Below are positions 3,001 to 31,199 of a DNA stretch of 64,000 nt, piece by piece (position 1 is the first letter of the stretch; every line of letters begins with the position of its first letter). Under the pieces are notes generated by a model. That model did no database searches. It had not been told where the DNA came from and worked only from the letters and a program-made list of their open reading frames with translations. The position numbers and the translations under genes were made by a program. Source of the stretch: Paecilomyces variotii (taxonomy: Eukaryota); NCBI GenBank assembly GCA_004022145.1, contig RCNU01000028.1. One strand, given 5' to 3'.

Positions 3001-4411
3001 ACTTATTATATATCTTTATTTATCTAGTAATATACTTATATAAGCCTTTCTACTAATATTAATTAGCTACTTTCCTATATATTATTTTATATTTCTAATA
3101 TTTATATTCTTTATAAAGAGTAATAAAGATCTCTTTTTACTTTCCCTTATTATTAATAACTATTTAATAAGGCTAATTCTGCTATACTCTCTAGAAAAGG
3201 ATATTATCTTGTACTATATACTTTATAGCCTCCTTCTTAAACTTAGTATATTATCCCTAATCTATATTATCTAGTTTTATTATAATTTATAACTATTCTA
3301 TAATTAGCAAAGACTTTTTTAATTAATATAATATAAGCATTAACTAAGAAATACTATTTAATTTTACTTCTTATATATTAATATAATAGACTATATAAAA
3401 CTATAAGTCTAGGAATTTCTCTATATTATTATCTTCTGCCTCTTCTAGATCTTACTTTATTATTAGATAATTTATCTATAATTAAGTTCTTTTTCCCTAA
3501 TATATAGATAATATTAAAGTTAAATAATTAAATCTAAGCAATTTATTAAGTAATTATTAATTTAAAGAGATTTATAGCTATCTTATTTAATTATATAACT
3601 AGAGTTTTTATATTTACCTTTAGTTAAAAATATATATTATATAGATATACTTAGAATTTGCAAAGTATCTTTAATACTGCCCTATATTTTAATTTTCCTT
3701 TATTATATTGCCTCTCTGCTTATATCTATACTTTATTTTTATATCTAGCTAGGTATCTCTTATTAGACTCCTTTTTTTCTTAAGTAAATTATACCCTCTA
3801 TTTATTATTACTGGTATTAATATTAATAATAATTATATCTTTCTCTTTATAATTAATTAGCTTAAGTATTAGTACTATTATTAAAGCTATTTTTAAAATA
3901 TTTATTATTTTTTATTATTTTAGCCCTTAAAAGAAGTTTTATCTCTTTCTTAATATTAAGTATATTAGCTTAGCCTTAGTAATATATTCTTTAATCTATA
4001 TCTAGTAATAGGCTATAATCTCTAGAAATTCTCTCGCTTCTTATAAGTTTTAATAAGATAGTTATTTTAAGATCTTAATTATTTTAGCTAACTTAAGATA
4101 TTTCCCCTTAGCATTATATATATAGTCTATTATTTTAATTCTTAATATTATAAATTATAATTTCTTCTTAATAATTATTAAACCTATAAGTTTAAGACTA
4201 TATAGTACCTTATTAATATTCTAGATATATTTAAATATAAACCTTCTAATTCTTAGCAGTGTCTCTTCCTCCTTATAATTAGTCTTAGGTCCTTATATTA
4301 ATATATTATCTAGAAATATATTATAGATATTAAGAATATTATCTGCTAGTATTCTTATAACTCCTTATATAAACTCTTATACTATATTTATTTATCCTTA
4401 GAATAATCTAG
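1..4411 (-). mobile_element. Ty3/Gypsy family copy A, left part (ORF3 region, integrase, RNase H, part of RT), heavily RIP-mutated and interrupted by copy B
   Basis: Reverse complement is colinear with ~8470-12850 of copy B (1-40 matches rc of 12810-12850). It resumes at 14608 after the CTAG duplication. Confidence 0.9.
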
Positions 4412-4737
4412 TATAGTGGGGAGAATCGGTGTAAAGAATGCAATTAGTTAAGAGGTTATATGCTTTTGCTTAAAGTCTTTAAAAAGTCTACAAGCAAAGC
4501 AAGAGAAGAGAGATAATACCTTTTAGTTACTTAGAATAAAATAATTAGCTTTTCCTTTCTATTATTGTTTAGTATCAGTTCAGCATTAGATTATTATTAG
4601 TTTACTATATTAGTTTATAGCTAGAGCTTCTCCTCTAGCTCTACTCTGAGCTCCGAAGCTAAATACTCTTCTCTTCCTTCTTAATACCTACTCGCTTAAA
4701 GACTCTATGCTAAGTCTTAATATATCTTCCTATAATA
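4412..4737 (+). repeat. 5' LTR of Gypsy copy B
   Basis: TATAGTGGGG...CCTATAATA (RIP form of TG...CA); aligns end to end with 14282-14607. Confidence 0.93.
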
Positions 4738-4740
4738 AAT

Positions 4741-4758
4741 TGGAGCCAAATACGGGGG
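4741..4758 (+). promoter_or_regulatory. Putative primer-binding site (tRNA not assigned)
   Basis: TGGAGCCAAATACGGGGG starts 3 nt after the 5' LTR; degenerate rc versions lie next to the LTRs at 18331 and ~39770. Confidence 0.55.
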
Positions 4759-5275
4759 GCGTTAAAATATTAAGCAGAAATAAGGGAGAAAGGAGAACTA
4801 GAAGCTAAGGTTAAGGCTGAAGCTGAGGAAAGGGGTAAGAAGCGGTAAAAAAATAAGTAAAATAGCTGAGGAAGATTACCATTATAAACAGAAAGAGATA
4901 AATATACTTCTTAGATTAGCAGAGACAGCGAATATAATATAAGGCGAAAACGCGCATTAATAACGAGAGAAAGGAAAGACTGCTAAATATAAGGAAGAGC
5001 TCAGCAAATATAAAAGAGAAGTAGAAATTCAAAAGAAATAGGAAATTATTAAGCAAGAATTATTTATTAAAAAATAGAAGAATTTCTTACTATTATCTTT
5101 ATTACTATTCCTTTAGAAAAATATAGAGAAAAGCACTAAACTTTTTGGCGTTAGTTAAAATAAAAGGACCTCTAACTTCTCAGTGTCGCCGGGTCTGGAG
5201 GCACAGATAGCTTAGGTATTTAAAAATGCAGGACTACTAATAGTATAGCTAATCCAGGTTATATTAGCTTCGCAG

Positions 5276-7498
5276 ATGCCAATGCCTAGAAATCCTGGGG
5301 CACTATATTTTAAAGGAGATAATATTACTTATTACCTAAGGCTTTTTAAAAGGCTATATAAGGCGAATTAACTCCCGGAAGAGGAAAAAACTAAATAGTT
5401 TATAGACTATTATAGCCCATCGGTATTATTATAGATAAGTACTTAACCTAAATATAAAGAGAAGAACTACTTAAAACTGGCAGAAGCGACTAAATAAGAG
5501 TATACTTACTGTAATAAGTACCAAAGGAAATATAATATCTAATAGCTGGAAAGGTTTAAAAATGTAAAATATAATAGCTCTAAGGACCTAAAGGAATATA
5601 ACTGAGAATATTAAGCTATATCGGAAGTGTTAGTAACTTCAGGTAAATTAAGCCGATACTTGCAGGGAGTTTAGTATCTTTAAGAATTTCTAAAGGAGTT
5701 TAAGCAGCAGATAGTTCAGGAGTTAAATATAGACTATTATACTCTATCTACTATTAAATACGCCAATTTCTATAAGAAGGTAGTAGACAGGATAAGAATA
5801 ATTAAAACCCTTTACTACCTCAACAGCAGCGAACCAGAGAAAGATTAAGATATAGCGGCTTTAATAAAGGAGAAGGTAACTGAAGAAGATAATATATAAC
5901 TTCTTATTAAACCTAATAGAACTTACCCGGATAAGAATAAAAGTAGGATTAAATAATAGAGCGCTAAAGTAAAGTCGACAGAGTAGTTATAGATTAATTA
6001 GTTAATAAAAGAGTTTAAAAAGTTGAAACTATATAGTATACAATATATAGGGAGGCTTAATAGTGGCATGCCTAATGCTGGCATAAATATGTAAGCCAGG
6101 GCGCCTTTAGGATTTAACCCGACTAAAGGATCTAGAATACCTCTAAACTTATATAACTTCTACTGGGCTCCTGATTATATTTAATTCTATTACCTAGATT
6201 TAAAAAGCCTCCTAAATTAGAAGCTTATCTATTAGGGAGAAGATTGCAAACTTTACTTTAGGCCGGAAGGATAGAATAGAAAAGTTATTTATCTTATATA
6301 GGGGAATATATCGCAAAAAGAGATTGTTAAACAGAGACTAAAGAAAGAGCAAAAGAATATTAGCTTAATTAGGTATAACATCCAGTCGATCATGCTAGGA
6401 CAGCCTAGGGATAACTTAAGCTCTAAGGAAGAAGCTAGGGACATTATAGAAAATTACTACTCTGTTAATATAATAGGATTGGATAAGCCCTAAAGAGTGA
6501 AGAAAAGGCAAAACGGGACTAAATAATTATATAAGGAAAAATTATAGAAAGTAATTAAATAGGAATAGAGATTTCCTTCAGTTAAGATAAACTAATTCAG
6601 CAATTATTAGCCTCTGAGCATGATTAAGAAAGTGAGGATAGTTAAAGAAGAAATAAAGGATGCGCCTAAGCAGAGTGAGGATAAAAAGGTTATTAAGATA
6701 AAAGAGAAATAGAAGTTAAAGAGGTTTAAAGTTGCAAATAAGCTGAAAGGGACTATTGATATAATAGGGGTTATAAACTAGATATTGGATACTGGAGTTC
6801 AGATGTTAATTCGGGATCTTATCAGTCTATCTCCTAATTTGCACAAGGCCTTATTTACCTTGCAACCGCAGCAGGTGATAATAAAGGTAATATTCTATGA
6901 TACTAAAGGAGTACAGTTTAATGCCTCTGTATTAAATACAAAGTATATGGTGAACAGTGCGGATTAGTGCACTTATACGTCCTTATAACTTAAGCCTCTT
7001 AATGAAGACAAAGTGCTATACACGGCCGCAACTCTGAAGTTGCCAATCAGAATTAATGGTTATAAAGAGACATGAAATATCATGGTAGATAGTGGAGCCG
7101 AAATTAATGTAATGCATAAAGATATGGTAAATTACTATAAACTCATTATAAGCCAGAAATTCAGAGGTAATATAATATCAGCAGATGGCGGGCAGACCCC
7201 TTTTATAGGTCTCTGTAAAGAGGTGCCTATATAAGTAGGATCTTTCTATTATAAGGTCCCTTTTTTTGTGGTAAATAACAAGATTAACTATAATTGTATT
7301 CTGGGACGGCCTTTTAAGTATTAAGCATATTTGCGGCACGTTGCTCTATTAGATGGGATAGTAAAGAGCATAATTTACTCTATGGACTGAAAGAATTAAG
7401 CCGTTATTCGGGTATTTTTAATAGATAACCTAAGAAACAAATTAAGGGAAGAGGTATTGCGCGATTTATTGTCCCGGGCATAAGAGTTGTTAAACTAG
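5276..7498 (+). pseudogene. gag: Gag-protease relic ORF (true start may lie further upstream)
   Basis: One frame reads MPMPRNPGALYF..., then YNFYWAPDYI*FYY at 6152 (de-RIPs to CNFCWAPDHIQFYC, a CX2CX4HX4C knuckle) and the aspartyl protease motif MVDSGAEINVM at 7082. Stops are mostly TAA/TAG, as expected from RIP. Confidence 0.85.
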
Positions 7499-10400
7499 AG
7501 CTAGAAAGAAATAACAAATACTAGATTAGGAATAGAGAAGGCCTGCGGGAGCTATACTCAGTGAATAACATTAGCTTTGGAGCAAGCGAGGAAATTGAAA
7601 GTAAAGGGGTAGGGATATTTAAACCTACCAAATTAAACAAAGGAGTTAGAAGGTTATGGGGGTATAGACTGTCTAGAAGGTGTAACTTTTTTACCATAAA
7701 AATAAAATATTTTATTAATATGCGGTATAAGAAGAAATATAAAAAGGTTTATCTAATAAATATATTAAACAGACTTACAGCGGCTCTAGGGGGGTTATTG
7801 AAATAGAAAGAAGTTATTAGGGAGCGCTATTACAAAAACCCCTAAAGAAGCGTAAAAGAAATACACAGAGGATTTGCCGAATATATCTAGCCAAAGATAT
7901 TAGATATTAAGAGAGGAATAAGATTAATACCGGACCGTCTAAAGAACCTTATTATAGGTAATAATTTATGGCTAAGAGAAAAAGAACTATTAATAAAGGT
8001 GCTTTTCACCCGAGAAGCGGTCCTTGCCTAGACTTTTAAAGAGATTAGATAAATGCGCCTAGAAGTTGTACCTCTAATTATTATTTGGACTATAGATTAT
8101 AAACTATAGCAGATAAAAAGCTTCCCAATACTAAAGGCACTTTATAGCATAGCACAAGAAATAGTGAAAGAGAGGATAAATACAGGGATCCTTAAACGCA
8201 GTCAAGGACTCTATTAAAATCTATAGTTCTTAGTAAAAAAGAAAAGCGGTAAATATTAGCTGATTAATACAGCTATAGAAGTTAATTAAATAATAATATA
8301 AGATGCTAATCTGCCCCCTTCAGCTAATAAGTTCTTAGAAGAGTTCAGTAGAATGCTAGTGTTAACGCTTATAGACTTATTCTCTGGGTATAATTAGTTA
8401 GAGTTGGCTGAGGAATCGCGGGACTTAACAGCTTTCTATATGCCAGGGATCGGTTTAATTTATTAAGCTAGACTACCCCAAGGATGGATAAATATAGTAT
8501 AGGAGTTTATGCGAGGAGTTATAAGAGTATTGGCAGATAATATTCCTGACATTTATAATATATTTCTAGATAATATACTAATATAAGGACCTAAGACCAA
8601 TTATAGGGGGGAAAAGACGCTGCCGGGAATTAGAAGGTTTATATTTAAACATATCTAGAATATCGACAAGGTATTATACAGTCTTAAACTTGCAGATTTA
8701 ATAATTACTGGGGAGAAATTATAATTTATAGTACTAGGAATTAAAGTGGTAGGCTATGTGTATAACGCTGAGGGGAGATATCCCGAGTTAGCTAAGATAA
8801 TTAAGATCTTAGAGTAGCTATCTTATCAGAACTTATAGGAAGCGAGAGGATTTCTGGGAGTTACAGCCTATTACTGGATATAGATTAAAGAATATGCTAC
8901 TAAAGCCGAGCCGATATACTTAATACTAAGGAAAGGATAAAACTTCTTTTAGGGGCCGGAATAATAAGAAGTAATAGACACCTTAAAAGTGGCCCTAATA
9001 ATAGTACCAGCACTTAAGCCGATTAACTATAGAGAGGGAGGTATAATTATTATTAATACTAATGCCAATAACAGTAGATAGGGGGCTTAACTTGCTTAAG
9101 AAGAAAAGGAGTCTAATAAGAGATACTTAGCCAGATATAAAAGTAGAGTATAGATATAGGCAGAGAGGCAATATAATAAAGGAAAGCTAGAGTGCAGGGC
9201 AGTGCTAAAGGTGCTTTACAAATTCTGAGTATACCTATATAATATATATTTTTGACTAGAGATAGATGTAAAAACTCTAGTGGCGCAACTAAATAGAATA
9301 GCTATAGACCTCCCTAAGTTAGTGGTTGCTTAATAGATTGCTTAGATTCAGCTATTTAACTTTAATATTATCTATATATTAGGGAAAAAGAACTTAGTTA
9401 TAGATAGGTTGTCTTAGAAGCTAATAATAGAGCAAGACCTAGAAGAGGCGGAAGATAATAATATAGAGGAATTTCTAGACCTACAGTTTTATACAGTCTA
9501 TTATACTAGTGTGCAAGAGGTAGAATTAGATAATATCCCTTAATTGATACCTATATTGCATTAGTTAGAAAAATCTTTGCTAATCGCAGAATAGTTATAA
9601 ACTATAATAAAACTGGATAATATAGACAGAGGACAGTACACTAAATTTAAGAAAGAGGCCCTGAAGTATATAGTACAAGATAGTATGCTTTTCTAGAGAG
9701 TATGACAAAATCAGCTTTGCTGCATAGTTGTTGACGATAAAGAAAAATAAAAGGAAATTCTTATAGCTCTTTATAAAAAGTATAAATATTGTAAGTATAA
9801 AGCGACTTATTAAAAGGTGGCTAATCAATATTAATAAAAAGGCCTGTATGAGTATATTGCTAGATAGGTAAAGATATATAATAAGTGCTAGAAAGCAGAT
9901 AAAGAATATATAGAAGAAGCTTTATAATTAATATTTATTCTATTAGGGAGATTGAAGCTATATTTAGATATCTGTAAGATTATACCGCCTAGCAAGGGAA
10001 AGACTTATATTGCTATACTTTAGGACGACTTCGGCTAAGTTAAATACAGAGCCTTTAGCAGCCTTACTTTAGGAGCTATTACTAAGTTCTTATAGGAAGA
10101 CTAGATTTATTATTGGGGAGTAATAGAGACTCTTATTAATAACAGAGGACCAGAGAATAAAACTGCAGTTAATATATTAGTACAGAAGTATAAGATTAAC
10201 TATATTAAAGTCTTGCTATATAACCTGTAAGCGAACAGAGCAGTTAAAGTTATATATAAGTCTTTTATATATAGTATTAGAAAACTTATAAAAAGAATAG
10301 GGGTAAATTAGGTAGATTATCTACTGGCAGTAATCTAGGCGGATAGGAATATAGTTAAGACCTTTATAGGCTTAATATTATTTAGAGCAGTTATAGGATA

Positions 10401-10953
10401 TAATGCTGTACTGCTAATTAAACTAGAAGTGCCTACCTAGAAGACTTTAGCATAAGATAAGGTTAGGACTATAGAAGATCTTCTACTCCTTCACGCATAA
10501 CAGATAGAGCTCTAAGATTAGGATATAGAAGAGGCCCGACTTCGCGTCTAATGTAAAAGAGAAGCTGGTAAGGAAGTCTTTAACAATAAAAAACAGCTTT
10601 GCGAAAAATAACTAATAGAAGGACAGCTTATTCTGCTTTATAATATAAAACTTAAGATGTCTTACTCTATAAAACTGGTATACTACTAGCTCAGATTATA
10701 TAGGATTAAAGAAGTCTTTAGGAAAGGATCCTATAAGCTTAAGGAGTTAGATAGTACACCTTTTAGGGACCCGATTTATAGGAATTGCTTAAAAGGCTAT
10801 TATTTATAAGAGGACTAAAATGAAATATTAACTACAAGTAATAATATAGCACCTGAGTAAAAAAATCAGTAACTGAGTAATAATAATAATAATGCAGACT
10901 GGATACCACCTGGATTAAAATATACAGTTGTGGTCCCAGCACCCTCCTTCTAA
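7495..10953 (+). pseudogene. pol: Pol relic ORF (reverse transcriptase, RNase H, integrase) in the -1 frame relative to gag-PR
   Basis: IDLFSGY (~8371), LPQGW (~8473), IFLDNIL from FLDD (~8560), RNase H TNA from TDA (~9058), integrase NRGPENK from DGGPENK (~10141); ends ...VVVPAPSF* at 10953. Confidence 0.9.
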
Positions 10954-11599
10954 AAATGTCAGTTTAGAAGGAGAGAAGTAGAAAGCTAGCAGTGAAGCAA
11001 GTTTAATGCTAAGTAAGAATGCTACGATAGGAAGAGAAGGAGGGTGAACTTAAGATAAGGGCGTCTTTTTTTGGGGAGGGGAAGGATTTAAAGATGCCTG
11101 AAGATAATTAAGAAAGAAGAAAAAGAGAGATAACTGAAAAACACGTGATATTGGCTTAAATACCTTGAAAAAGTCTATAAATAAAGCCAAAAATAGAAAA
11201 TATTAGATAAAGAATATAAGTAACAAATAAAGAATTCTTACCTTATTATAAAAACCTTATTTTTTATATTATATAACACCACAGCGGAAGTGACTGGAGA
11301 CTAAATTAAGCTAAACTTAACCCTATCTTACCTTTTAAGTATATCTTTTTACTTAGAAACTATTTTGAAGAGTTGCTTTATGAAGATATGCATTAAAAAT
11401 AGAAAAAAACGCACTAGAAATATGAAATATTATCTGTTAGGACAAAGCTTTTTAACTCAGAATATATATATATACTACAGTTAGCAAAATTTGTGAGCTT
11501 ATAAAGGAGATAATAAGTAAGGCCAATAATAAAGAAGAGAAGGTTTAGTTTATAAGTAATATAGCAGCAATTATTTCAAATTTTTAAAGCAGGCACGAT

Positions 11600-14280
11600 A
11601 AAGCAGCTAGTAATTTTTATAATTTCCTGAACTAATAAAAGCTATTAGAAGAAGTAAGAAAGAAAAAAGTACTAGCTGTTAATAAGCTGAAAGAATTAAA
11701 AATATAAACAGAAAAGAACTATAAATATGCTAATAAAGGTTATTATAAAGCCATAGAGAAATAGGGCTAAGAGACTATAGACTAAGTCTTGTTGATTATT
11801 AGAAAGTTATACTAGACCTTAGTAGCTATAGGAGGATTAGCTTTTAATACTAGAGACTAGAGAATAGCGGCTGTGTATCTAACAAGAGTATAGGTTAATA
11901 GACTTTATAATATTAGGAGATAAAGAATATTAACTGAAAAGAGCCTTTAACTAACTAATATTAGAAAGGCAAGAGATATCTTAAGAAAAGCCCTCAGCGG
12001 AGAAAGACTAATTTTTTAAAAGCCTATTAATAAAAAGCTATAAGAGGTTAGAATAAGAGTAGGGGAGAATAATCTTCTAGAGGAGATTATGGGAGAAGAG
12101 AAAGAATATCAGATAAAAGATTTAGGTGAGAGTTTATTAATAGATCTGATATTAGATAAAAAAGAGAAAAGCATAGAGGAGGAGGAAAAAGGGAAAAAGA
12201 AGATTAAGAGTCCTAAGAAGCCGAAAGGGGAAAAGAAGCTTAAGACTTAAGATAAGGAGAAACAGCTAGAAAAAGGATGTGAATATAAGGTTGGCATATC
12301 TATATTAATAGAAAAGGCTATTGCTAACCTAGAAGGCGAAGAAGTACTAGAACTTTTAAGGGAAGAAAGGATTAAACCCGCTGCTATATGCTAAGTTTAT
12401 GTTAAAAAAGTATAAAGCGTAATAGGACTGAGGAGTGCAGAAGATAATATCTTTAGAGAAAGGTTAAAAACGCTTATAGATAGTGACGATAACTTCAAAT
12501 CCTAGAATACTAATATAGACCACTGGAAATGGTTTTAATGGGGATAGAGACTTAACGCTAACCTCGAGGATTATTGCTGCCTGGATAAGGGGGAAACTAA
12601 AGCATAATCCTGGCTAAGTGGACTAAATATAAGCGCTGAGGAGGTCGGAGAAGTTTTACAGTAGGTTGATTCTAGGAAGATTAACTTAATCTGCGAGCCT
12701 TATATATAATTATTGGCCAATATAATTAGCATAAGGGAGGATATGTCTATAAAAGAAGCTAGAGGAGTATTAAAAGCAGTAAGAAATATAAAGCTGGCAG
12801 TAGTAAAGCAGTAGAAGAAGGGATTATTTAGAGCAATAACCCATCCTTATAGAAGTTTACTTGAAGAAACCAAATAGTCTATAAATAAAACCTCTAGAGG
12901 TAAATAGGTAACAGAACCTCCCAGCAGAGCCTTAGGAACTAATATAAAGCCCTCCTTTTCTGTGGTAAACCTGGAAGACTCCTTTATTAAAAAAAAAACC
13001 GGGCACCCGAAAGATATACAAAACACTAGAACTGTATAATTTAAAGATAATATAGAGGCTAAGCAGATACTAGGCACACCCAGCAATAGCTAGGTTGAAG
13101 GAAGAATAAAGAGTCCTATTCTAGGAAGTCCTAAAAGCATAGAAGATAGAGATAATACAAAAGTTAAAGAATCCTTATCTAAAGACCTTCTCCTCAAGAA
13201 ATCCCCGGCGTTAGGGATAGTTTAACTGTTTAGAGATCTTGGGTTAATTAATACAGATACTTCTAGTGATATACCGAGCAGTTTGTACTGTAAAGTCTGA
13301 GATAACCTATATAAGGCTGAAGAGTATCCCGAATCTAAGTATGGGGATAAAAAACATTTTAACCTAAGCGAAGAAGACTTTACCCTGAATAAGATACGGG
13401 ACTAATATATTTAGTTAAGTATTGCAATAAGGGAGGACTTTAACTATTGGGAAGCGAATGGGGTTTTCTAGATTATACCCTTTGAAGGGAAACTGGTAAA
13501 AGGGATATTATAATATGCTACTACAGAAGCGAAAATAGCCCTTTATTATAAGAAGGAGGGTGAAGGAATAGTAGGGCTTAAGAACTTATCTAGGAGTATT
13601 CTCTAGAAGGTTGTTGTGTAAGATATCCGGATCTATTTGATCTGGTTAGTGCTATATAGTTACGGCGAATACAGGCTATAGGTCCGGTATCTCAGAGGAT
13701 ATAAGCTAAGAGCATTAAATATAGAGACTGCTATCCCTAAGGGAGGAATAGGCTAAAGCTTTATAACCCTGGGAACTGGACTAATTGCCAGAGATAAATC
13801 TGAGGAAACTATAGGCTTAAGAGATATTGTACTTAGGCGGGGAGAAGTAACTTTTGTTAGTGATTTGTATTAGCTAATATTAGAGAATTAGGGAATAAAT
13901 CTTAATAGTATCTGCTGTTTTGATTATAGGGAGTAAGATAAGATAAGATTTGACTAAGAAGGATCCGGGCCTTTTAATATCTAGGTAAATAGAGTTATAG
14001 CTATAGGCAGAGCGATACTCAGTTAGCTAAACTGGGATTGCTTAGAAGTCGAAGCAGAGCTATACTTTATACTAAAGCAAGATATATTATCAGTTCGAGA
14101 TTATCTGCGGAGGAAAGGAACTCAGCTTTATGAGTTAGGGGTTTTAAGGTATATATAACACTAGAAACTGGAGCATTCCTGCTTTAGAAACAATTTATAG
14201 TATTAGAAGGAGGAGATAGTGTAGACTGTAATAACTAAGGAAGGCAGATGGGGGCATTTGCTCTCGGAGGAGGGGAGGCT
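11600..14280 (+). pseudogene. Extra sense-strand relic ORF (ORF3) of unknown function between integrase and the 3' LTR
   Basis: Hand translations of 11642-~12030 and 12422-~14280 fall in the same frame, with only RIP-derivable stops. The N-part is E/K-rich. The region is also present in copies A, C and D. Confidence 0.65.
14266..14278 (+). other. Polypurine tract
   Basis: GGAGGAGGGGAGG just before the 3' LTR; an rc version follows the LTR at ~22464. Confidence 0.85.
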
Positions 14281-14281
14281 A

Positions 14282-14607
14282 TATAATGGGGAGGATTGGT
14301 GTAAAGAATGCAATTAGTTAAGAGGTCATATGCTTTTGCTTAAAGTCTTTAAAAAGTCTATAAACAAAGCAGGAGAAGAGAGATAACACCTTTCAATTAC
14401 TCAGAATGAAATAATTAGCTTTTCTTTTCTATTATTGTTCAGTATCAGTTCAGCATTAGATTATTATTGGTTTACTATGTCAGTTTACAGCCAGAGCTTC
14501 TCCTCTAGCTCTACTCTGAGCTCCGAAGCCGAATACCCTTCTCTTCCTTCTCAATACCTACTCGCTCAAAGACTCTATGCTGAGTCTTAATACGTCTTCC
14601 CACAACA
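14282..14607 (+). repeat. 3' LTR of Gypsy copy B
   Basis: Ends ...CCCACAACA with an intact CA; less RIP-mutated than the 5' LTR. Confidence 0.93.
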
Positions 14608-17600
14608 CTAGCTTAATAAATTAAACTAATTTTTAGTATATAAAAAGCTATTAAGTCCTGTAATTCCTTAGCTAGTTCTAATTAATTATACTTAGAGAAT
14701 AAGTCTATAAGTATTAATATTAGTATTTTACTAAACTCTTCTAAGAACTTATTAGTTAAAGAGAGTAGATTAATATCTTATATTATTACTTAATTAACTT
14801 TTATAGCTATATTAATTAGCTAATATTTATTGCTTTTCTTTTTTATTAAGAACTATAGATTTTAATAAGGTCCTTAACTATATTTAAGAATCTCTATATT
14901 TATTCTCTTTTTTATTATTCCTTATATTATACTATAAAATATCTTTAATATTAGAAAGCTTTTTATTTATTATAGTTTATAATCTATAGTCTAAATAATA
15001 ATTAAAGGTATAATTTCTAGGCGTATTTATCTAATCTTTTTAAAGATTTAGGTAAGAGCTATTTTTTAGGTAAAAAATATCTTTATTAATAGTTTTTTCT
15101 CTCTTAGCTATAAATTATCTTCTATAATAAGATTCTTTAGATAGTTTAATATTAGTCTTATTTCTCTCTTAATATCTAATATCTTTAGCTAAATATATTT
15201 AATAAATCTTCTATATATTTTTTTTATACTTCTTTAGGGGTTTTTATAATAATACTTTCTAATAACTTCTTTTTATTTTAATAACTCTCTTAAAGCTATT
15301 ATAGGTCTATTTAATATATTTATTAAATAAACCTTTTTATATTTTTTCTTATACTATATATTAATAGAATATTTTATTTTTATAATAAAAAAGTTATACC
15401 TTCTAAATAGTTTATACCCCTATAACTTTTTAACTCCTTTATTTAATTTAATAAGTTTAAATATTTTTACCTCTTTAGTTTTAATTTTTTTGCTTATTTT
15501 AAAGCTAATATTATTTACTAAGTATAGCTCCTATAGGCTTTCTCTATTCTTAGTCTAATATTTATTATTCTTTTCTAGCTTTAATTTAATAACTCTTATA
15601 CTTAGGACAATAAATTATATAATATCTCTTTTCTTAACTTATTTCTTAGGTTATCTATTAAAAATACCTATACTACTGCTTAATTCTTTTAGTCTATAGA
15701 ATAAATTATACTTTCTACTATTTTATCAGATAAGGCTATATATCTTAAGCGTGCTTAATATTTAAACAGTTATCCTAAGATGCAGTTATAATTAATCCTA
15801 TTATTTACTATAAAGAAAGGGACCTTATAATAGAAGGATTTTACCTATATAGGTATTTCTTTATAGAGACTTATAAAAGGAGTTTATCTGCTATCTGCTA
15901 AAATTATATTGCCCTTAAACTTCTAGCTTATAATAAGCTTATAGTAATTTACTATATCTCTATGCATTATATTAATTTTAGCTTCGCTATCTATTATAAC
16001 ATTTTATAGCTCTTTATACTTATTAATTTTAATAGGTAGTTTTAGAGTTATAGCCGCGTATAATACCCTATTATTATTAAGAGGCTTAAGTTACGATAAT
16101 ATATAAGTATACTAGTCTAAACTGTTTACCATATATTCTGCATTAGATACTAAAGTATTAAACTATATAGCTTTAGAGTTGTAGAATAATGCCTTAGTTA
16201 TTACTAGTTGCAGTTAAGGGGTAAATAAGGCTTTATAAAGCCTAGGAGATAATTTAATAAGATCCCTAATAGATATTTAAACCCTAGTATCTAAAATCTA
16301 GTTTATAATACCTATTATATCTATAATCCCTTTTAGTTTATTTACTACTTTAAACTTTCTTAGAGATAGTTTCCCTCTTATCTTAGTTATCTTCTCGCTT
16401 TTATCTAGTTTAGGTACTTCTTTTATATCTTTATCTACTACTCTTACTTGCTTAATTATATTTAATAGCTAATAATTACTAAACCGGTTTATTTTAACTA
16501 AGAGAAATCTTTACTCTTATTTAATTATTCTTTGCAGTTTTTCCTTATGCTATTATTTAGTCCCACTCTGTCTCTTCTTTATTCCTTAAGGCTTCTCTAA
16601 TCCTATTATATTAACCGAATAGTAATCTTCTATAATATCGCTAGCTTCTTTCTTAGAGCTTAAGTTATTACTAGTCTGTCTTAGTATAATAGACTATATA
16701 TTGTATTTAATTAAACTAACTTACTTCTATTTCTTCTTTAGTCTCTATTTAATAATTACCTTTTATAATATATTTCTTTAGATAAAGTAAATAACTTCTC
16801 TATTTTACCCTTTTAGTCTAAAATAAAGTTTATAGTCTTCTCTTTAATAAATAAGTTTTTAATTTAAGAGATTCTTTAAATTTAAGTAATAAGGTTAAAT
16901 ATAATTAAGAGCCTAGTAAAAGTTATATAAGTTTAGAAGAATTTTAAATTCTTTAGCTAGAGCAAATCTTAAAGATACTCTAGCTTATATATTTATACTA
17001 GTATTAGGTATACTATTATTAGGCCTCCTTATATACTATATATTATATAGTTTTAACTTCTTAAACTCTTTTATTAACTAATTAATCTATAACTGCTTTA
17101 TTAACTTTATTTTAATACTCTATTATTTAGTCCTATTCTTATTCTTATTTAAGTAAGTTCTATTAAGTTTAATAAAAAGTCGCATATTATCTTTTTTAAT
17201 TATTTTCTCCTTTATTAAAGCTATTATATCTTAATCTTTCTCTAGTTTTCTACTATTAAAGTAAGAAAGAGTTTTAATTATTTTTACTCTATCTGCTACT
17301 TCTTTATAGAAATTAATATATTTAATAATAGATAGAGTATAATAGTCTATATTTAACTCTTAAATTACTTACTGCTTAAGCTCTTTTATAAAATCCTTAA
17401 AGATATTAAACTCCCTATAAGTATTAGCTTAATTTATCTAAAGTTATTAATACTTCTAATATAGCTTAATATTCTTAGTTATACTTTCTTAAATCCTTAG
17501 AGCTATTATATTTTATATTTTTAAACCTTTCTAGCTATTAGATATTATATTTCTTTTAATGCTTATTATAATAAGTATACTCTTATTTAGTTACTTCTGC

Positions 17601-18674
17601 CAGTTTTAAGTAGTTCTTCTCCTTATATTTAAGTTAAGTATTTATTTATAATAATACTGATAGGCTATAATAGTCTATAAATTATTTAATTTTTTCCTCT
17701 TTTAAGAGTTAATTTACCTTATATAGTCTTTTAAAAAGCCTTAGATAATAAATAATATTATCCCCTTTAAAATAAAGTACTCTTAGATTTTTAGGTATTA
17801 ATATTTATAGAGCTAATATAACCTAGATTAATTATACTATTAGTAGTCCTATATTTTTAAATGCTTAAGCTATTTATACCTCTAGACTTAGTAATATTAA
17901 GGAGCTAGAAGTCTTTCTATTTTAACTAATGCTAAAAAGATTAGTGCTTTTTTCTATATTTTTTTAAAGGAATAGTAATAAAGATAATAATAAGAAGTTC
18001 TTTTATTTTTTAATAAATAGTTCTTATTTAATAATTTCTTATTCCTTCTAAATTTCTGCTTCTCTTTTATACTTATTAAGCTCTTCCTTATATTTAGTAG
18101 TTTTTTCTTTTTTTTATTGCTAATATATATTTTTACCCTATATTATTTTTACTATCTCTACTAATTTAAAAGATATATTTATCTCTTTCTATTTATAATA
18201 GTAATCTTCTTTAATTATTTTATTTATCTTTTTACTGCTTCTTATCTCTTTTTTTAACTTTAGCTTTAATCTTGGCTTCTAATTCTTCTTTCTCCTTTAT
18301 TTCTACTTAATATTTTAATATTTCTTATATTTGGCTCTATTTTATTATAAGAAGATATATTAAGACTTAATATAGAGTCTTTAAGTAAGTAGGTATTAAG
18401 AAGGAAGAGAAAAATATTTAACTTTAGAACTTAGAGTAGAGTTAGAGAAGAAGCTCTAGCTGTGAACTAATATAGTAAACCAATAATAATTTAATACTAA
18501 ACTGATACTAAATATTAATAGAAAGGTAAAGCTAATTGTTTTATTCTGAATAACTAAAAGGTATTTCCCCTCTTTATCCTCTACTGCTTTACTTATAGAC
18601 TTTTTAAAGACTTTAAGTAAAAGTATATAATCTCTTAACTAATTATATTCTTTACGTCGATCCTCCCTACTATA
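14608..18674 (-). mobile_element. Gypsy copy A, right part (RT N-terminus, PR, gag, 5' LTR at 18343-18674)
   Basis: Continues the sequence broken at 4411 (compare the uninterrupted site at ~29191-29220) and ends with rc PBS plus rc LTR. Confidence 0.9.
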
Positions 18675-21600
18675 ATATTAATCCTATATCTTATTTAAGG
18701 TAAAGTTTTCTTTATTTAGATTAAAATATTTTCTGTTCTTATATTTAGATTTAGGATACTCTTTAGCTTTATATAGATTATCTTAAGCTTTATAATATAA
18801 ACTACTAAGTATATTACTAGAAGTATTTATATTAATTAATCTAAGATCTTTAAATAGTTAAACTATTCTTAATACTAAAGATTTCTTAGGGAGAAGGTTT
18901 TTAGATAAGGTTTTTTTAACTTCTATATTATCTTTATCTTTTATACTTTTAAAACTTCTTAAAATAAGACTCTTTATTCTTTCTTTAACTTAGCTATTAT
19001 TAGATATATTTAGCATCTGTTTAGCCTTTAAATTATTTTTAAATTATATAGTTCTAATATTTTATATATCTTTTAAATGCCTAGTTTTTTTCTTAATAAA
19101 GAGGTCTTCTAGGTTTACTATAGAAAAAAAGGGCTTTATATTAATTCTTAAGGCTCTGCTAGGAGGTTCTATTACCTATTTATTTTTAAAGATTTTATTT
19201 ATAGACTATTTAATTTCTTTAAGTAAATTTTTATAAAGATAAGTTATTACTCTAAATAATCCCTTCTTCTATTATTTTATTACTGCTAGCTTTATATTTC
19301 TAACTATTTTTAATACTCCTCTAGTTTTTTTTATAAATATATTCTCTTTTATACTAATTATATTAGCTAATAATTATATATATAGCTTATAAATTAAGTT
19401 AATCTTCTTAGAATTAACCTACTATAAGACTTTTTTAACTTTTTTAGTACTTATATTTAGTCTATTTAGCTAAGATTATATTTTAGTTTTTCTCTTATCT
19501 AGGCAGTAATAATCTTTAAGATTAGTATTAAGTCTCTATCTCTATTAAAACTATTTCTAGTAGTTTATATTAATACTCTAGTATTTAAGGTTATTATTAT
19601 TATTTATAAGTATTTTTAACCTTTCTCTAAGAATATTATCTTTTATATTCTTTAATCTTATTATGCTTTATATTTTTTTAATATAAACTTAGTATATAGC
19701 TGCGGGTTTAATTTTTTCTTCTCTTAAAAATTTTAATATTTTTTTATTTTTTAAGTTAGTAATAGCTTTTTCTATTAATATAGATATATTAACTTTATAT
19801 TTATATTTTTTTTCTAGCGTTTTCCCCTTATTTTAAGTCTTAAACTTCTTTTCTCCTTTTAGCTTTTTAGGACTTTTAGTCCTTTTCTTCTTTTTCTTCT
19901 TCTTTTTTATACTTTTCTTTCTTTTATTTAATATTAGATTTACTAATAAGCTCTTATCTAAATTTTTTATTTAGTATTCTTTCTCTTCTCTTATAATTTC
20001 CTCTAAAAGATTATTTTTTTTTATTCTTATTTTAATCTTTTGTAATTTTTTATTAATAAGCTTTTAAAAAATTAATTCTTCTTTACTAAGGGCTTTTCTT
20101 AAGATATCTTTTGCCTTTCTAATATTAGTTAATTAAAGGCTTTTTTTAGTTAATATTTTTTATCTCTTAATATTATAAAGTCTATTAATCTATATTCTTA
20201 CTAAATATATAGCTATTATTTTCTAATTTCTAATACTAAAAGCTAATTCTCTTATAGCTATTAAGGTCTAATATAACTATTTAATAATTAATAAGACTTA
20301 GTCTATAGTCTCCTAGCCTTATTTCTCTATAGCTTTATAATAACCTTTATTAATATATTTATAATTCTTTTCTGCTTATATTTTTAATTCTTTCAGCTTA
20401 TTAATAGCTAATACTTCTTTTTTCTTATTTCTTCTAATAGCTTCTATTAGTTTAAAAAATTATAAAAATTACTAGCTGCTTTATTATACTTGCTTTAAAA
20501 ATTTAAAATAATTATTACTATATTACTTATAAACTAAACCTTTTTTTTTATTATTAGCCTTACTTATTATCTTTTTTATAAGCTTATAAATTTTGCTAAT
20601 TGTAGTATATATATATATTTTAAGTTAAAGAGCTTTATCTTAATAGATAATATTTTATATTTCTAATATATTTTCTTCTATTTTTAATATATATCTTTAC
20701 AGAATAACTTTTTAAAATAGTTTTTAAGTAAAAAGCTATACTTAAAAGATAAGATAAGGTTAAGTTTAGCTTAATTTAGTCTCTAGTTATTTCTGCTATA
20801 ATATTATATAATATAAAAAATAAGGTTTTTATAATAAGGTAAGAATTCTTTATTTATTGCTTATATTCTTTATTTAATATTTTCTATTTTTAGCTTTATT
20901 TGTAGACTTTTTTAAGATATTTAAGCTAATATTATATATTTTTTAGTTATCTCTTTTCTTCTTCTTTTTTAATTATTATTAGGTATCTTTAAATTCTTCC
21001 TCTCCCTTAAAGAAGATACCCTTATTTTAAGTTTATCCTCCTTTTCTTCTTATTATAATACTAATACTTATTTTATTATTATTCTTCTATTTCTTCTTCT
21101 TTTAAATTAACTTCTTATCTTACTTTACTACTAGCTTTCTGCTTCTTTTCTTTTAAGCTAATATTTTTAAAAGAAGGGTATTAGAATAATAATTATATAT
21201 ATTAATCTAAGTAATATTTAGTCTATATTATTATTATTATTACTTAATTATTAATTTTCTTACTTAAGTACTATATTATTACTTGCAGTTTATATCTTAT
21301 TTTAATTCTCTTATAAATAATAGCTTTTTAAGCAATTCTTATAAATTAAATCTCTAAAAAGTATATTATCTAACTTCTTAAACTTATAGAATCCTTTCTT
21401 AAGGACTTTTTTAATCTAATATAGTCTAAACTAGCAGTATACTAGTTTTATAAAGTAAGGTATCTTAAGCTTTATATTATAGAGTAAAATAAGCTATTCT
21501 TTTATTAGTTATTTTTTATAAAGCTATTTTTTATTATTAAAGACTTTCTTACTAGCTTCTCTTATATATTAGATATAAAATTAGGCTTTTTCTATATCTT

Positions 21601-22131
21601 AATCTTTAAGCTTTATTTATTATATGTAAAGAAGTAAAAGATCTTCTATAGTCCTAACCTTATCCTATACTAAAATATTCTAGATAGGTACTTTTAATTT
21701 AATTAGTAATATAGTATTATATCTTATAATTACTCTAAATAGTATTAAACTAATAAAAGTCTTAATTATATTCTTATTTACCTAGATTACTACTAGTAAA
21801 TAGTTTATTTAATTTATTTCTATTCTTTTTATAAGTTTCTTAATGCTATATATAAAGGACTTATATATAACTTTAACTATTTTATTTACTTATAAGTTAT
21901 ATAATAAGACTTTAATATAGTTAATCTTATACTTCTATATTAATATATTAATTATAGCCTTATTCTTTAATCTTTTATTATTAATAAAAGTCTCTATTAC
22001 TCTTTAATAATAAATTTAATCTTTTTATAAGAACTTAGTAATAGCTCTTAAAATAAGGCTATTAAGAGCTTTATATTTAACTTAGCTAAAGTTATCTTAA
22101 AATATAATAATATAAGTCTTTCTCTTACTAG
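18675..22131 (-). mobile_element. Gypsy copy C fragment (ORF3 region to integrase), host of copy A and interrupted by copy D
   Basis: Colinear with 23335-26795 and with rc of copy B ~10000-13410. Confidence 0.85.
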
Positions 22132-25100
22132 TATTATAGAAAGACATATTAAGACTTAATATAGAGTCTTTAAGCGAGTAGGTATTAAGAAGAAAGAGAA
22201 AAGTATTTAGCTTTAGAGCTTAGAGTAGAGCTAGAGAAAAAGCTCTAGCTGTAAACTAATATAATAAACTAATAATAATCTAATACTGAACTAATACTAA
22301 ATAATAATAAAAAAGAAAAGCTAATTATTTTATTCTAAATAATTAAAAGGGTATTATTCCCCCTTTTCTCCTGCTTTATTTATAAACCTTTTAAAGACTT
22401 TAAGTAAAAACACATAATCTCTTAACTAATTATATTTTTTATACCAATCCTTCCTATTATATAGTCTCCTCTTCTTTAAGAATAAATACCTTTATTTGCC
22501 TTCTTTAGTTATTATAGTCTATATTATCTCCTTTTTTTAATATTATAAATTATTCCCGAAGCAGGAATACTCTAGTTTTTGGTATTATATATATCTTAAA
22601 ACCTCTAACTTATAAAGCTAAGTTCCTTTTCTTTACAGATAATCTTAAATTGATAATATATCTTATTTTAATATAAAGTATAGCTCTGCTTTAACTTCTA
22701 AGTAATCTTAGTTTAGTTAATTAAGTATTACTCTGTCTATAGTTATAACTCTATTTCTTTAGATATTAAAAGGCCCGGATCTTCCTTAATTAGATTTTAT
22801 CTTATCTCGCTTCTTATAATTAAAACAGTAGATATTATTAAAATCTATTCCCTAATTCTTTAATACTAGTTAATATAAATTGCTGATAAAAATTACTTCT
22901 CCTTACCTAAGTATAATGTCTCTTAGGCCTATAGTTTTCTCAGACTTATCTCTAATAATTAGTCTAGTCCTTAAGATTATAAAGCTCTAGCCTATTCCTC
23001 TCTTAGGGATAGTAGTCTCTATATTTAATATTCTTAGCTTATATCTTCTAAGATATTAGATCTATAGCCTATATTTACTATAACTATATAGCGCTAATTA
23101 GATTAAATAGATCTAAATATCTTGCGCAATAACCTTCTAGAGAATACTCTTAAATAAGTTCTTAAGCCTTATTAATTCTTTATTCTCTTTTTTATAATAA
23201 AGGGCTGCTTTTACTTTAATAGTAATATATTATAATATTTTTTTTACTAATTTCTCTTTAAAAGGCATAATCTAGAAAACCCTATTTATTTCTTAATAGT
23301 TAAAATCCTTCCTTATTATAATACCTAATTAGATATATTAGTCTTATATCTTATTTAGGGTAAAGTCTTTTTTACTTAGGTTAAAATATTTTCTGTCTTT
23401 ATATTTAGATTTAAGATATTCTTTAGCCCTATATAGGTTATCTTAGGCTTTATAATATAAGCTATTAAATATATTACTAGAAGTATCTATATTAATTAAC
23501 CTAAGATCTCTAAATAGTTAAACTATCTCTAATGTTAGGGATTTCTTAAGGAAAAGGTCTTTAGATAATAATTCTTTAATTTCTATATTATCTCTATCTT
23601 TTATACTTTTAGGACTTCCTAAAATAGGACTTTTTATTCTTCTTTTAACCTAGCTATTACTAGGTATACTTAGTATTTGCTTAGCCTTTATATTATCTTT
23701 AAATTATATAGTTTTAGCGTTCTATATATCTTTTAGGTGCTTAGTTTCTTTCTTAATAAAGGGGTCTTCTAGGTTTATTATAGAAAAGGAGGTTTTTATA
23801 TTAGTTTTTAAGGCTCTATTAAGAGGTTTTATTACTTATTTATTTTTAGAGATTTTGCTTATAAATTATTTAGTTTCTTTAAATAAACTTCTATAAAGAT
23901 AGGTTATTACTTTAAATAGTCTCTTTTTCTACTGCTTTACTATTGCTAGCTTTATATTTCTAATTATTTTTAATACTTCTTTAGCTTCTTTTATAGATAT
24001 ATTCTCCCTTATACTAATTATATTGGCTAATAATTATATATAAGGCTTGCAGATTAAATTAATCTTCTTAGAATTAATTTATTATAAGACTTCTTTAATT
24101 TCTTTAGCACTTATATTTAGTCTATTTAGTTAGGATTATATTTTAGTTTCCCCCTTATCTAGGCAGTAATAATCCTTAAGGTTAGCGTTAAGTCTCTATC
24201 TCTATTAAAACCATTTCTAGTAGTCTATATTAATATTCTAGGATTTAAGGTTATTATTACTATCTATAAGCATTTTTAACTTTTCTCTAAGAATATTATT
24301 TTTTATACTTCTTAGTCCTATTATACTTTATACTTTTTTAATATAAACTTAGTATATAGCGGCAGGTTTAATCTTTTCTTTCTTTAAAAGTTCTAGTATT
24401 TTTTTACTTTTTAGGTTAATAATAGCCTTTTTTATTAATATAGATATATTAATCTTATATTTATATCTTTTTTTTAGCTATTTCCCCTTATCTTAAGTCT
24501 TAAGCTTTTTTTCCCCTTTTAGCTTCTTAAGACTCTTAATTTTCTTCTTTTTTTTTTCTTTCTCTTCTATACTTTCTTCTCCTTTATCTAATATTAGATT
24601 TATTAATAAGCTCTTACCTAAATCTTTTATTTAATATCCTTCCTTTTTTTCTATAATCTCTTCTAGAAGATTATTCTCCCTTATTTTTATTTTAATCTCT
24701 TATAGCTTTTTATTAGTAGGTTTTTAAAAAATTAGTCCTTCTCTACTAAGGGCTTTTCTTAAGATATCTCTTACCTTTCTAATATTAATTAGTTAAAGGC
24801 TCTTTTTAATTAGTATTTCTTATCTTCTAATATTATAAAGTCTATTAATTTATACTCTTACTAAATACATAGCTGCTATTCTCTAGTTTCTAGTATTAGA
24901 AGCTAATTCTCCTATAGCTATTAAGGTCTAATATAACTTTTTAATAATTAATAAGACTTAGTCTATAGTCTCCTAGCTTTATTTCTCTATAGCTTTATAG
25001 TAATCTTTATTAGCATATTTATAGTTCTTTTCTGCTTATATTTTTAATTCTTTTAGCTTATTAATAGCTAATACTTTTTTTTTTTTTACTTCTTTTAATA

Positions 25101-27456
25101 GCTTCTATTAGTTTAAGAAATTATAAAAATTATTAGCTGCTTTATTATATCTGCTTTAAAAATTTAAAATAATTGCTGCTATATTACTTATAAACTAAAT
25201 CTTCTCTTCTTTATTATTAGCCTTATTTATTATCTCCTTTATAAGCTTATAAATTTCACTAACTATAGTATATATATATATATTCTGAGTTAAAGAGCTT
25301 TATTCTAACGGATAATATTTTATATTTCTAGTATATTTTCTTCTATTTTTAATGTATATCTTTATAAAATAATTCTTTAAAATAGTTTCTAAATAAAAAG
25401 ATATACTTAAAAAGTAAGATAAGGTTAAGTTTAGCTTAATTTAGTCTCTAATTACTTTCGCTGTAGTATTATATAATATAAAAAATAAGGTTTTTATAAT
25501 AAGGTAAGGATTCTTTATTTATTACTTATATTCTTTATCTAATATTTTCTATTTTTAACTTTATTTATAGACTTTTTTAAGATATTTAAGCTAATATCAT
25601 ATGTTTTTTAATTATCTCTTTTTTGCTTCTTTTTTAATTATTATTAGATATCTTTGAATTCTTCCTTTCCCTTAAAAAAGACGCCCTTATCTTAAGTTTA
25701 TTCTCCTTCTCTTTTTATTATAGCACTAATACTTATTTTACTATTATTTTTCTGTTTCTTCTCCTTTTAAACTAGCTCCTTATCTTATTTTACTACTAGC
25801 TTTTTACTTCTCTTCTTTTAAGCTAATATTTTTAAAAGGAGGGTATTAGAACTATAATTATATATTCTAATCTAGGTAATATCTAGTCTGTATTATTATT
25901 ATTATTACTTAATTGCTAATTTTCTTACTTAGGTATTATATTATCTCTTACAGTTAGTATTTTATTTTAGTTCTCTTATAAATAATAGCCTTTTAAGTAA
26001 TTCTTATAAATTAGGTCTCTAAAAGGTATATTATCTAACTCTTTAAGCTTATAAGATTCTTTTCTAAGGACTTCTTTAATCCTATATAGTCTAAGCTAAT
26101 AGTATGCCAGTTTTATAAAGTAAGATATCTTAAGCTTTATATTATAAAGCAGAATAAGCTATCCTTTTATTAATTATTCTTCGCAAAGCTATTTCTTATT
26201 ATTAAAGATTTTCTTACTAGCTTCTCTTATATATTAGATATAAAGTTAGGCCTCTTCTATATCCTAATCTTAGAGCTCTATTTATTATATATAAAGAAAT
26301 AAAAGATCTTCTATAGTCTTAACCTTATCTTATGCTAAAGTCTTCTAAATAGGCACTTCTAGTTTAATTAGCAATATAGCGTTATATCTTATAATTGCTC
26401 TAAATAGTATTAAGCCTATAGAAATCTTAACTATATTCTTATCTGCCTAGATTATTGCTAGTAAGTAATCTACTTAATTTATTCTTATTCCTTTTATAAG
26501 TTTTCTAATACTATATATAAAGGACTTATATATAACTTTAACTGCTCTATTTGCTTGCAGGTTATATAGCAAGACTTTAATATAGTTAATCTTATACTTC
26601 TATACTAATATATTAATTATAGCTTTATTCTCTAGTTCTTTATTATTAATAAGAGTCTCTATTACTCTCTAATAATAAATCTAGTCTTCTTATAAGAACT
26701 TAGTAATAGCTCTTAAAATAGGGCTATTAAGGGCTCTATATTTAACCTAGCTAAAGTTATCTTAAAGTATAGTAATATAAGTCTTTCTCTTACTGGGTAG
26801 TATAATCTTATAGATATCTAGATATAGCTTTAATCTCCCTAGTAGAATAAATATTAATTATAAAGCTTCTTTTATATATTCTTTATCTGCTTTCTAGTAT
26901 TTATTATATATCTTTACCTATTTAGCAATATACTTATATAGGCCTTTTTACTAATATTAATTAGCTACTTTTTAATAAATTACTTTATACTTATAATATT
27001 TATACTCTTTATAAAGGGCTATAAGAATTTTCTTTTACTTCTTCTTATTATTAATAATTATATAATAAGACTAATTTTATTATACTCTCTAGAAAAGTAT
27101 ATTATCTTAAACTATATACTTTAGGGCCTCTTTCTTAAACTTAGTATATTATCTTCTATCTATATTATCTAGTTTTATTATAATTTATAACTATTTTATA
27201 ATTAATAAAGACTTTTCTAACTAATATAATATAGGTATTAACTAAGAGATACTATTTAATTTTACCTCTTATATACTAATATAATAGACTGTATAAAACT
27301 ATAGGTCTAAGAATTTCTCTATATTATTATCTTCTGCCTCTTCTAGGTCTTACTCTATTACTAGCTTCTAAGATAACTTATTTATAACTAAGTTCTTTTT
27401 CCCTAATATATAGATAATATTAAAGTTAAATAATTAAATTTAAGCAATTTATTAAG
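22132..27456 (-). mobile_element. Gypsy copy D (3' LTR 22132-22461, PPT, ORF3, integrase), truncated
   Basis: rc LTR followed by rc PPT, preceded by CTAG (22128-22131); homology breaks at ~27456. Confidence 0.85.
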
Positions 27457-30800: not shown

Positions 30801-31199
30801 TTATAGTTAAGGAATAAATAAGGCTTTATAAAGCCTAGAAGCGGGATATAGCTCGGCCCAGCCGGGGCTAAGCTTAGCTTACCTGAAAAGCTCAGCCCAC
30901 CTAAGAAAAATCTAGGTTCAGCTCAGATACTAAGTTAGTTTCAGTATAGTATTTAGGTGGGCTTAGCATATATATAGCTTATATAACTTACAATAAAGTT
31001 TTTATATTATATTGCAGTAAACTATATTTGTCAGAAACTATATATAACATATGCTCTATACTATATTACAGCATATGCTGAGCGTAGGTTAGAGTAATGC
31101 TAAGATATATACAGGGAGCTAGAACTAATATTATTCTGCGCGGTTTATTAAGGCGGTATATATAAAGGCGGTTATTAAGCATATGCTAAAGCAATGTTA

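Follow-up and report, generated by a model that had tools for sequence, protein, structure and literature searches.

Gag and pol are usually regarded as all that a long terminal repeat (LTR) retrotransposon needs, and a Ty3/Gypsy element of Paecilomyces variotii raises the question of what else such an element may carry. The element copy at issue, copy B, lies at 4412-14607 of a 64,000-nucleotide stretch of contig RCNU01000028.1 (GCA_004022145.1), called the window here, and has been degraded by repeat-induced point mutation (RIP). Between its candidate pol stop and its 3' LTR (start at 14282) lie 3328 nt, close to the 3.3 kb estimated in a first-pass annotation, which had proposed an uncharacterized accessory gene of the family in this region. 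That proposal is borne out: a third open reading frame (ORF3) with exact limits has an intact twin of 941 amino acids (aa), occurs in all four copies of the family counted within the window (A, B, C and D), and has diverged relatives that share conserved blocks. ORF3 is thus very probably a real gene, accessory to gag and pol, of a Gypsy family that was active recently. The best explanation as a whole, with a probability of roughly 0.6, is a genuine element-encoded additional ORF in sense orientation that is not an env gene and whose product may have a nuclear or regulatory role.

11399-14224, + strand: ORF3, 941 codons plus a TAG stop, RIP-inactivated (gapless BLASTP, tblastn)

The codons of ORF3 occupy 11399-14221 and the TAG stop 14222-14224; the start codon ATG now reads ATA. 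The expectation of one frame of about 900 codons running up to the polypurine tract was right as to a single frame, but the frame ends 57 nt before the LTR, and the alignment to the intact protein moves the start of the region from the 11600 first suggested to 11399. This intact counterpart, P0021, is a 941-aa 'hypothetical protein' of P. variotii (KAJ9246654.1 / KAJ9396751.1) that was reached through the cluster of relative P0002, of which it is also a member. The search for intact homologues recommended earlier thus yielded a full-length, gapless match: read through its stops, ORF3 of copy B shares 681 of 941 residues with P0021 (72%; 777/941 positives, 0 gaps; BLASTP), and the Met start of P0021 falls exactly at the start of similarity. 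All 260 mismatching codons (260/260) can be derived by C>T/G>A changes from a codon for the P0021 residue, against a mean fraction of 0.21 and a maximum of 0.29 in 1000 shuffled pairings. Because the match is gapless and every mismatch is RIP-derivable, ORF3 of copy B is a RIP-mutated version of a P0021-like gene, and its colinearity with the window without gaps indicates that the intact gene model comprises one exon only. The 52 in-frame stops stand at Q (26), R (18) and W (8) residues of P0021. The frame had been said to contain only RIP-derivable stops, which is accurate but is no test alone, since any stop codon can arise by RIP; what tests the frame is its match to the intact homologue. 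RIP has been shown experimentally in P. variotii, where AT-rich regions are described as derived from a Tf2-type element (PMC6300479).

The degraded frame also retains a coding signal of its own. Between 10801 and 14700 the ORF3 frame (2 mod 3) contains 80 stops versus 141 in each other forward frame, and between 11900 and 13900 there are 5-7 stops per 133 codons in the ORF3 frame versus 11-19 in the other two forward frames. This frame-specific depletion equals that of gag and pol in the same copy (5-10 and 4-12 stops per 133 codons, respectively). The parts of copy B that surround ORF3 are as follows.

4408-4411, + strand: target-site duplication CTAG, 5' copy (read off the sequence)
4412-4737, + strand: 5' LTR, 326 bp (direct repeat, blastn; ends read off the sequence)
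4757-7316, + strand: gag and protease region, RIP-degraded, frame 2 mod 3 (stop depletion, Pfam)
7500-10953, + strand: pol, with reverse transcriptase, RNase H and an integrase-like stretch, frame 1 mod 3 (Pfam, stop depletion)
10954-11398, + strand: pol-ORF3 spacer, 445 nt, closed in all frames
14266-14278, + strand: polypurine tract GGAGGAGGGGAGG, just 5' of the 3' LTR (read off the sequence)
14282-14607, + strand: 3' LTR, 326 bp (direct repeat, blastn; ends read off the sequence)
14608-14611, + strand: target-site duplication CTAG, 3' copy (read off the sequence)

Copy B measures 10.2 kb, and its LTRs agree at 92% over 300 nt (4412-4711 versus 14282-14581) or, by blastn, at 91% over 324 nt. 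A TGG-starting stretch resembling a primer-binding site, read by eye, begins at 4741; its tRNA partner is putative. Pfam identifies protease, reverse transcriptase and RNase H in this order: an aspartyl protease match at ~7043-7316 that narrowly misses the curated cut-offs (E 7e-5; stops translated as X) and, within ~8353-9283, RVT_1 (E 4.9e-5, below its cut-off) together with RT_RNaseH (E 7.5e-8) and RT_RNaseH_2 (E 9.6e-8), both above theirs. The gag region has a weak match to DUF4100. Integrase gives no Pfam match in the RIP-mutated sequence of copy B, its remnants being visible by eye only, downstream of RNase H, and Pfam finds nothing downstream of pol when stops are read as X. The candidate pol stop is a TAA at 10951-10953, which is not distinguishable from RIP-made stops. 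In the spacer, no frame is depleted of stops (12/20/13 per 180 codons), and copy B has a 40-nt gap at ~11005 relative to copies A, C and D.

The family-wide presence of the region had been read from its retention in copies A, C and D, and alignment confirms this with defined extents; of the four ORF3 copies, one runs off the edge of the window and another is missing its final ~273 codons.

6-1448, - strand: ORF3 of copy A, codons 1-482, the remainder lying beyond the window start (tblastn with P0021)
18681-20681, - strand: ORF3 of copy C, codons 1-668 (tblastn, alignment)
22540-25275, - strand: ORF3 of copy D, full length (tblastn, alignment)

Codons identical to those of P0021 or RIP-derivable from them number 478/482 in copy A (36 stops, one 3-nt in-frame deletion), 659/666 in copy C (44 stops, deletions of 2 nt and 1 nt) and 935/941 in copy D (67 stops), where tblastn covers codons 24-935 and the alignment all 941; copy D also has a 2-nt insertion in a TA run at 11461 (copy B coordinates). 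The four copies align almost indel-free from 11045 to 14281, and at most 7 codons per copy differ from a P0021-like progenitor in ways other than RIP. The copies are thus consistent with near-identical progenitors, and the family was therefore active recently. A consensus of the four copies with RIP changes reverted, which had been proposed as a check for an open frame, was made and hardly lowered the stop count; it has no power for openness because copy B is already the least mutated copy. Copy C is a deletion derivative or a recombination product: at 18669-18720, ORF3 passes from codon ~668 directly into the LTR, and the equivalent of copy B coordinates 13409-14270 is absent.

The protein encoded by ORF3 can be divided into the following segments, to which its relatives are compared.

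11399-12151, + strand: aa 1-251, N-terminal part, mostly helical by prediction (DSSP of a low-confidence AlphaFold2 model)
12188-12274, + strand: aa 264-292, lysine-rich patch including KGKKRTKSPKKP, resembling a nuclear localization signal (phmmer alignment)
12278-12400, + strand: aa 294-334, module 1, CxC-x34-CxxH (regular expression)
12572-12703, + strand: aa 392-435, module 2, CxC-x37-CxxH (regular expression)
12839-13273, + strand: aa 481-625, acidic linker rich in S, T, P and G (composition, AlphaFold2/DSSP)
13274-14221, + strand: aa 626-941, conserved C-terminal domain (alignments A2 and A3, phmmer)

Long helices are predicted at aa 45-86 and 95-147, in a low-confidence AlphaFold2 model that is indicative only. 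The two modules, which across the family take the summarized form CxC-x34-40-CxxH, are predicted to be helical; in copy B, module 1 has been mutated to C-E-Y ... C-X-V-Y. A tryptophan-rich patch, DHWKWFQWGW, precedes module 2, and its DHWKWF, previously placed at ~12518, is found at ~12521. The linker has a net charge of -16, consists to 41% of S+T+P+G and has no predicted secondary structure. The C-terminal domain is marked by the motifs NLSRSxLQK..QDIR.YLIWLAL.G.GEHR and DQGG.G.FD..V.GVTAIG.A.LGQ..WD..EV..ELY and has 25 invariant columns in the four-sequence alignment A3.

An exhaustive HMMER search of 1.84 billion representative proteins, with the ORF3 region read through its stops as X, returned 20 relatives at E<=1e-3, of which 9 reach 1e-10 or better and 4 reach 1e-30 or better. 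Their lengths range over 42-340 aa; together they tile query residues 1-910, and each matches P0021 (E 8e-156 to 5e-14). An organism is named in 8 of the 20 clusters, P. variotii every time, while the other 12 are Logan, ENA and JGI records. P0007, P0010, P0004, P0012 and P0020 appear truly diverged rather than RIP-worn: among the diverged relatives, at 24-60% identity (alignments A1 and A2), blocks are kept while linkers diverge. The kept blocks include IEDLGESLL.DLTL, the patch KGKKRTKSPKKP (identical in the divergent P0007; phmmer alignment), all four Cys/His positions of module 1 (CEC-x34-C..H) in P0007, and the module 2 block W.WF..G.R.DANL..C.C...WSW...CEPHV.LL in P0010 and P0009, with CxC and CEPH kept in the former and CEPH in the latter. 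The C-terminal motifs are kept in P0004, P0005, P0006, P0012, P0013, P0015, P0017, P0018 and P0020, and the N-terminal part is matched by P0016 (aa 57-143) and P0007 (aa 151-367). In the gene model of P0016, an N-terminus like that of ORF3 is joined to part of a reverse transcriptase (RVT_1, E 2.8e-4). The single locus from a metagenome scan, L001, spans 1512 nt; it holds a piece of a relative resembling P0005 that bears RIP marks, and the sequence upstream of this piece is unrelated. A word-index protein search with the RIPped read-through of 11480-14281 gave no match among the candidates listed; negatives of this search are weak, as lysine/glutamate-rich words may crowd those candidates.

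The reference annotation of P. variotii contains two non-RIP-looking proteins with the C-terminal domain only, P0013 (340 aa, on a 4.5-Mb contig) and P0022 (159 aa, on a 0.83-Mb contig). Each may be a relic or a domesticated copy, or the domain may have come from such proteins.

What the protein does is suggested by its motifs. The lysine-rich patch at aa 264-292 may serve as a nuclear localization signal and, together with the two Cys2-Cys-His modules, the acidic disordered linker and the conserved C-terminal domain, would suit a nuclear regulator or adaptor. A nuclear regulatory or nucleic-acid-binding role is accordingly offered here as a tentative proposal. The ORF3 protein would enter the nucleus and act as a regulatory or adaptor factor of the element: it might bind nucleic acid or chromatin and so drive LTR transcription, guide the pre-integration complex, or blunt host silencing. 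The two modules could bind zinc, and the more specific picture of a nuclear regulator with two zinc-binding Cys2-Cys-His modules, a fungal counterpart in role but not in kinship of retroviral accessory regulators, is no less tentative. Translation of ORF3 would be independent of Gag-Pol, from a transcript of its own that begins within the 445-nt spacer, since ORF3 lies in another frame, the spacer is closed in all frames and a 40-nt indel separates the copies there.

Other explanations differ in how well they account for these data. That ORF3 is a chance frame or a gene-caller artefact in repeat DNA is highly improbable. The database relatives are all automatic predictions, either 'hypothetical protein' or without name, and contigs assembled from public sequencing runs gave no transcript of ORF3, as this explanation would have it; however, chance would not be expected to leave 941 codons open in non-RIPped DNA, the stop depletion equals that of gag and pol, and relatives down to 24% identity (A1) keep specific blocks where their linkers diverge. 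An equivalent of env, serving cell-to-cell transfer as in errantiviruses or Athila-type elements, has an equally slight chance of being correct, although the frame occupies the place of env between pol and the polypurine tract and reads in the sense direction, and long N-terminal helices are predicted at low confidence. The product of ORF3 instead appears to be soluble, because it has neither a hydrophobic N-terminus nor a membrane-grade segment, and the earlier statement that nothing speaks for a true envelope protein holds. The N-terminus is hydrophilic: no signal peptide was detected by a hydropathy test, as distinct from a dedicated predictor (mean Kyte-Doolittle value of the first 30 aa -0.71, no hydrophobic run). 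No membrane segment was found either, the best 19-aa hydropathy window scoring 1.27, below the usual threshold of 1.6. Pfam envelope families give no match even at E<=10, and the lysine-rich patch and the acidic linker fit a soluble protein. A C-terminal extension of Pol, joined by frameshift or splicing and made as part of the polyprotein, is improbable to a somewhat lesser degree. ORF3 has the orientation of pol and lies directly downstream of it, and RIP-made stops obscure which stop originally ended pol; but the two are in different frames, the spacer between them shows no stop depletion in any frame and carries the indel mentioned above, and the annotated intact protein begins with Met exactly where similarity begins. 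A further, weak argument is that the C-terminal profile found no relative longer than 596 aa among the candidates listed.

A host or foreign gene might also have been transduced into one master element and copied in a recent burst, as a passenger that contributes nothing to transposition. LTR elements with transduced ORFs are on record (PMC7264820), named records of the orphan ORF3 family come solely from P. variotii, and the progenitors of the four copies were so alike (at most 7 non-RIP codon differences each) that a shared ORF3 shows a recent burst and not long retention. Moreover, the C-terminal-only relatives P0013 and P0022 on large contigs of the reference strain could be host copies, and copy C exists without the C-terminal part. 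Transduced ORFs are, however, described as typically present in one or few copies (PMC7264820), whereas ORF3 is present in 4/4. The many fragments at 24-60% identity, some of them RIP-marked (L001), and the reverse-transcriptase fusion of P0016 argue for several old element lineages rather than one capture, and no full-length host paralogue was found in the protein searches (in the word-index part, among the candidates listed). A passenger origin is thus unlikely, if by no means far-fetched, and a genuine accessory gene of the element accounts better for the data.

Several observations nevertheless weigh against the accessory-gene reading and its functional part. P0021 is the sole full-length intact sequence, the 20 search representatives being fragments that mostly look decayed, and it is known here from its protein record alone. 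In word-index searches, P0021 residues 1-941 against proteins of 517-1647 aa gave no full-length relative, and the C-terminal profile A2 against longer proteins no longer relative, among the candidates listed. Copy C lacks both the C-terminal ~273 codons and the polypurine tract region. Contigs of the metatranscriptome X19 cover the whole element, but as short RIP-type fragments that are possibly DNA, and two presumed P. variotii RNA runs give no real cover (three tiny pieces in X21, none in X22). Transversion columns between copies within ORF3 (17 in 2823 nt; codon positions 7/3/7) are too few for power to detect selection. The functional reading draws on motifs alone: Pfam gives no significant family match for ORF3 in P0021 and 10 relatives, PDB sequences searched with P0021, A2 and P0007 give no match, and the best ESM Atlas score for the whole protein and aa 626-941 (0.84) is within the range of shuffled proteins. 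The suggested AlphaFold check produced unusable models, with a predicted local distance difference test (pLDDT) score of 42.2 for the C-terminal domain (11-sequence alignment) and 37.0 for the whole protein (single sequence). The likeness of the two modules to each other is weak (BLAST E 0.001, obtained with a very small search space; hhalign P 0.014 at a probability of 3%).

A joint between a leader and ORF3 was not found in the run contigs, among which no run is shown to contain transcripts of an intact copy. Transversion columns among the four copies are concentrated near the pol end: 27/36 of those in 10715-12849 fall in 10715-11120. There are 10 in 11121-12849, and 11121-11398 is nearly invariant apart from RIP. 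What this cluster reveals is variability at the end of pol and the beginning of the spacer; it is no sign of selection on ORF3.

The family copies lie in the AT-rich part of the window, which comprises its first 56 kb (GC 13-35%); the last 8 kb are GC-rich (47-68%). Copy B (+ strand) is nested in copy A of the same family, inside the pol of the latter, with the CTAG duplication. Contigs from public runs X3 (n=2) and X19 (n=1) join 4407 to 14608 and thus represent the uninterrupted, empty-site form.

1-4411 and 14554-18677, - strand: copy A, host of the copy B insertion (blastn)
18669-22131: copy C (blastn)
22093-30827: copy D (blastn)

As it stands, the sequence from 4000 to 16000 contains 4 ORFs of >=60 aa. 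The stretch from 31000 to 56000 consists of more AT-rich repeat DNA with short matches only to the element, for example an LTR and gag stretch at 37682-40116. The last 8 kb contain a ribosomal DNA unit (18S at 59623-61422, 5.8S at 61608-61761, 28S from 61935), and a GC-rich spacer (up to 68%) at ~56-59.6 kb precedes this unit (59623-64000). Because the unit lies beyond this spacer, the RIP-degraded retrotransposon nest adjoins the ribosomal DNA array.

A large accessory gene of an orphan family thus sits in a recently active retrotransposon family, and the case shows that the exact limits of a gene degraded by RIP can be recovered by aligning its frame with an intact homologue. An intact copy is publicly annotated in a mould for which RIP, transformation and crossing methods are described (PMC6300479), so that the role of extra genes for an element becomes directly testable in the tractable P. 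variotii. 'Hypothetical proteins' and fragments of this species gain an identity as relics of a retrotransposon ORF3. If the protein were indeed a nuclear zinc regulator, it would switch on its own LTR, steer integration or counter genome defence, and no accessory regulatory protein encoded on the sense strand would have been described before it in a fungal LTR retrotransposon.

To our knowledge, additional ORFs are known mainly from plants and rotifers, almost none of them with a function. Two protein signatures bear comparison with the modules of ORF3, namely those of THAP (C-x2-4-C-x35-53-C-x2-H) and SWIM (CxC-xn-CxH). The ORF3 modules, CxC-x34/37-CxxH, are like both in the order Cys, Cys, Cys, His and in rough spacing, but differ from THAP in their first spacing (x1, not x2-4) and from SWIM in their last spacing (x2, not x1) and longer loop; with these differences and no Pfam match at E<=10, membership in either was rejected. 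ORF3 shares its position and orientation with retroviral, errantiviral and Athila-type env genes, from which it differs in having no signal peptide, transmembrane anchor or envelope family match.

By its place beyond gag-pol, between pol and the 3' LTR, and its presence in all four window copies, ORF3 is an additional ORF (aORF), a heterogeneous class among LTR retrotransposons. The aORFs reviewed for plants are like it in lying between pol and the 3' LTR in all copies seen, and a nuclear regulatory role has been suggested for some (PMC7264820). As far as that review describes the plant sense aORFs, ORF3 differs from them in its fungal host and lack of ENV-like traits, and it differs from plant aORFs generally in its very large size (941 aa) and in belonging to no described protein family. 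No published description of ORF3 was found in the literature searched, a search outside which the supplement on Botrytis additional ORFs falls. A named element from the same species as P0021 is Tn123, a 'Tf2-type' Gypsy element that also occurs as RIP-mutated AT-rich copies (PMC6300479). Compared by description only, Tn123 measures 7.09 kb versus 10.2 kb for copy B, and the account cited mentions no third ORF for it. The premise that fungal Gypsy elements usually encode only gag and pol requires a qualifier in view of Botrytis, whose elements include some with further additional ORFs (10.1101/2021.04.13.439636). Among these fungal cases, Boty/BcGypsy1 of Botrytis cinerea is a Ty3/Gypsy element with an extra antisense gene, brtn (original description by Zhao et al. 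2011, as cited in PMC7264820 and 10.1101/2021.04.13.439636). Both brtn and ORF3 lie between pol and the 3' LTR, a likeness of position; brtn is described in these sources as antisense, whereas ORF3 reads in the sense direction, on the strand of gag-pol.

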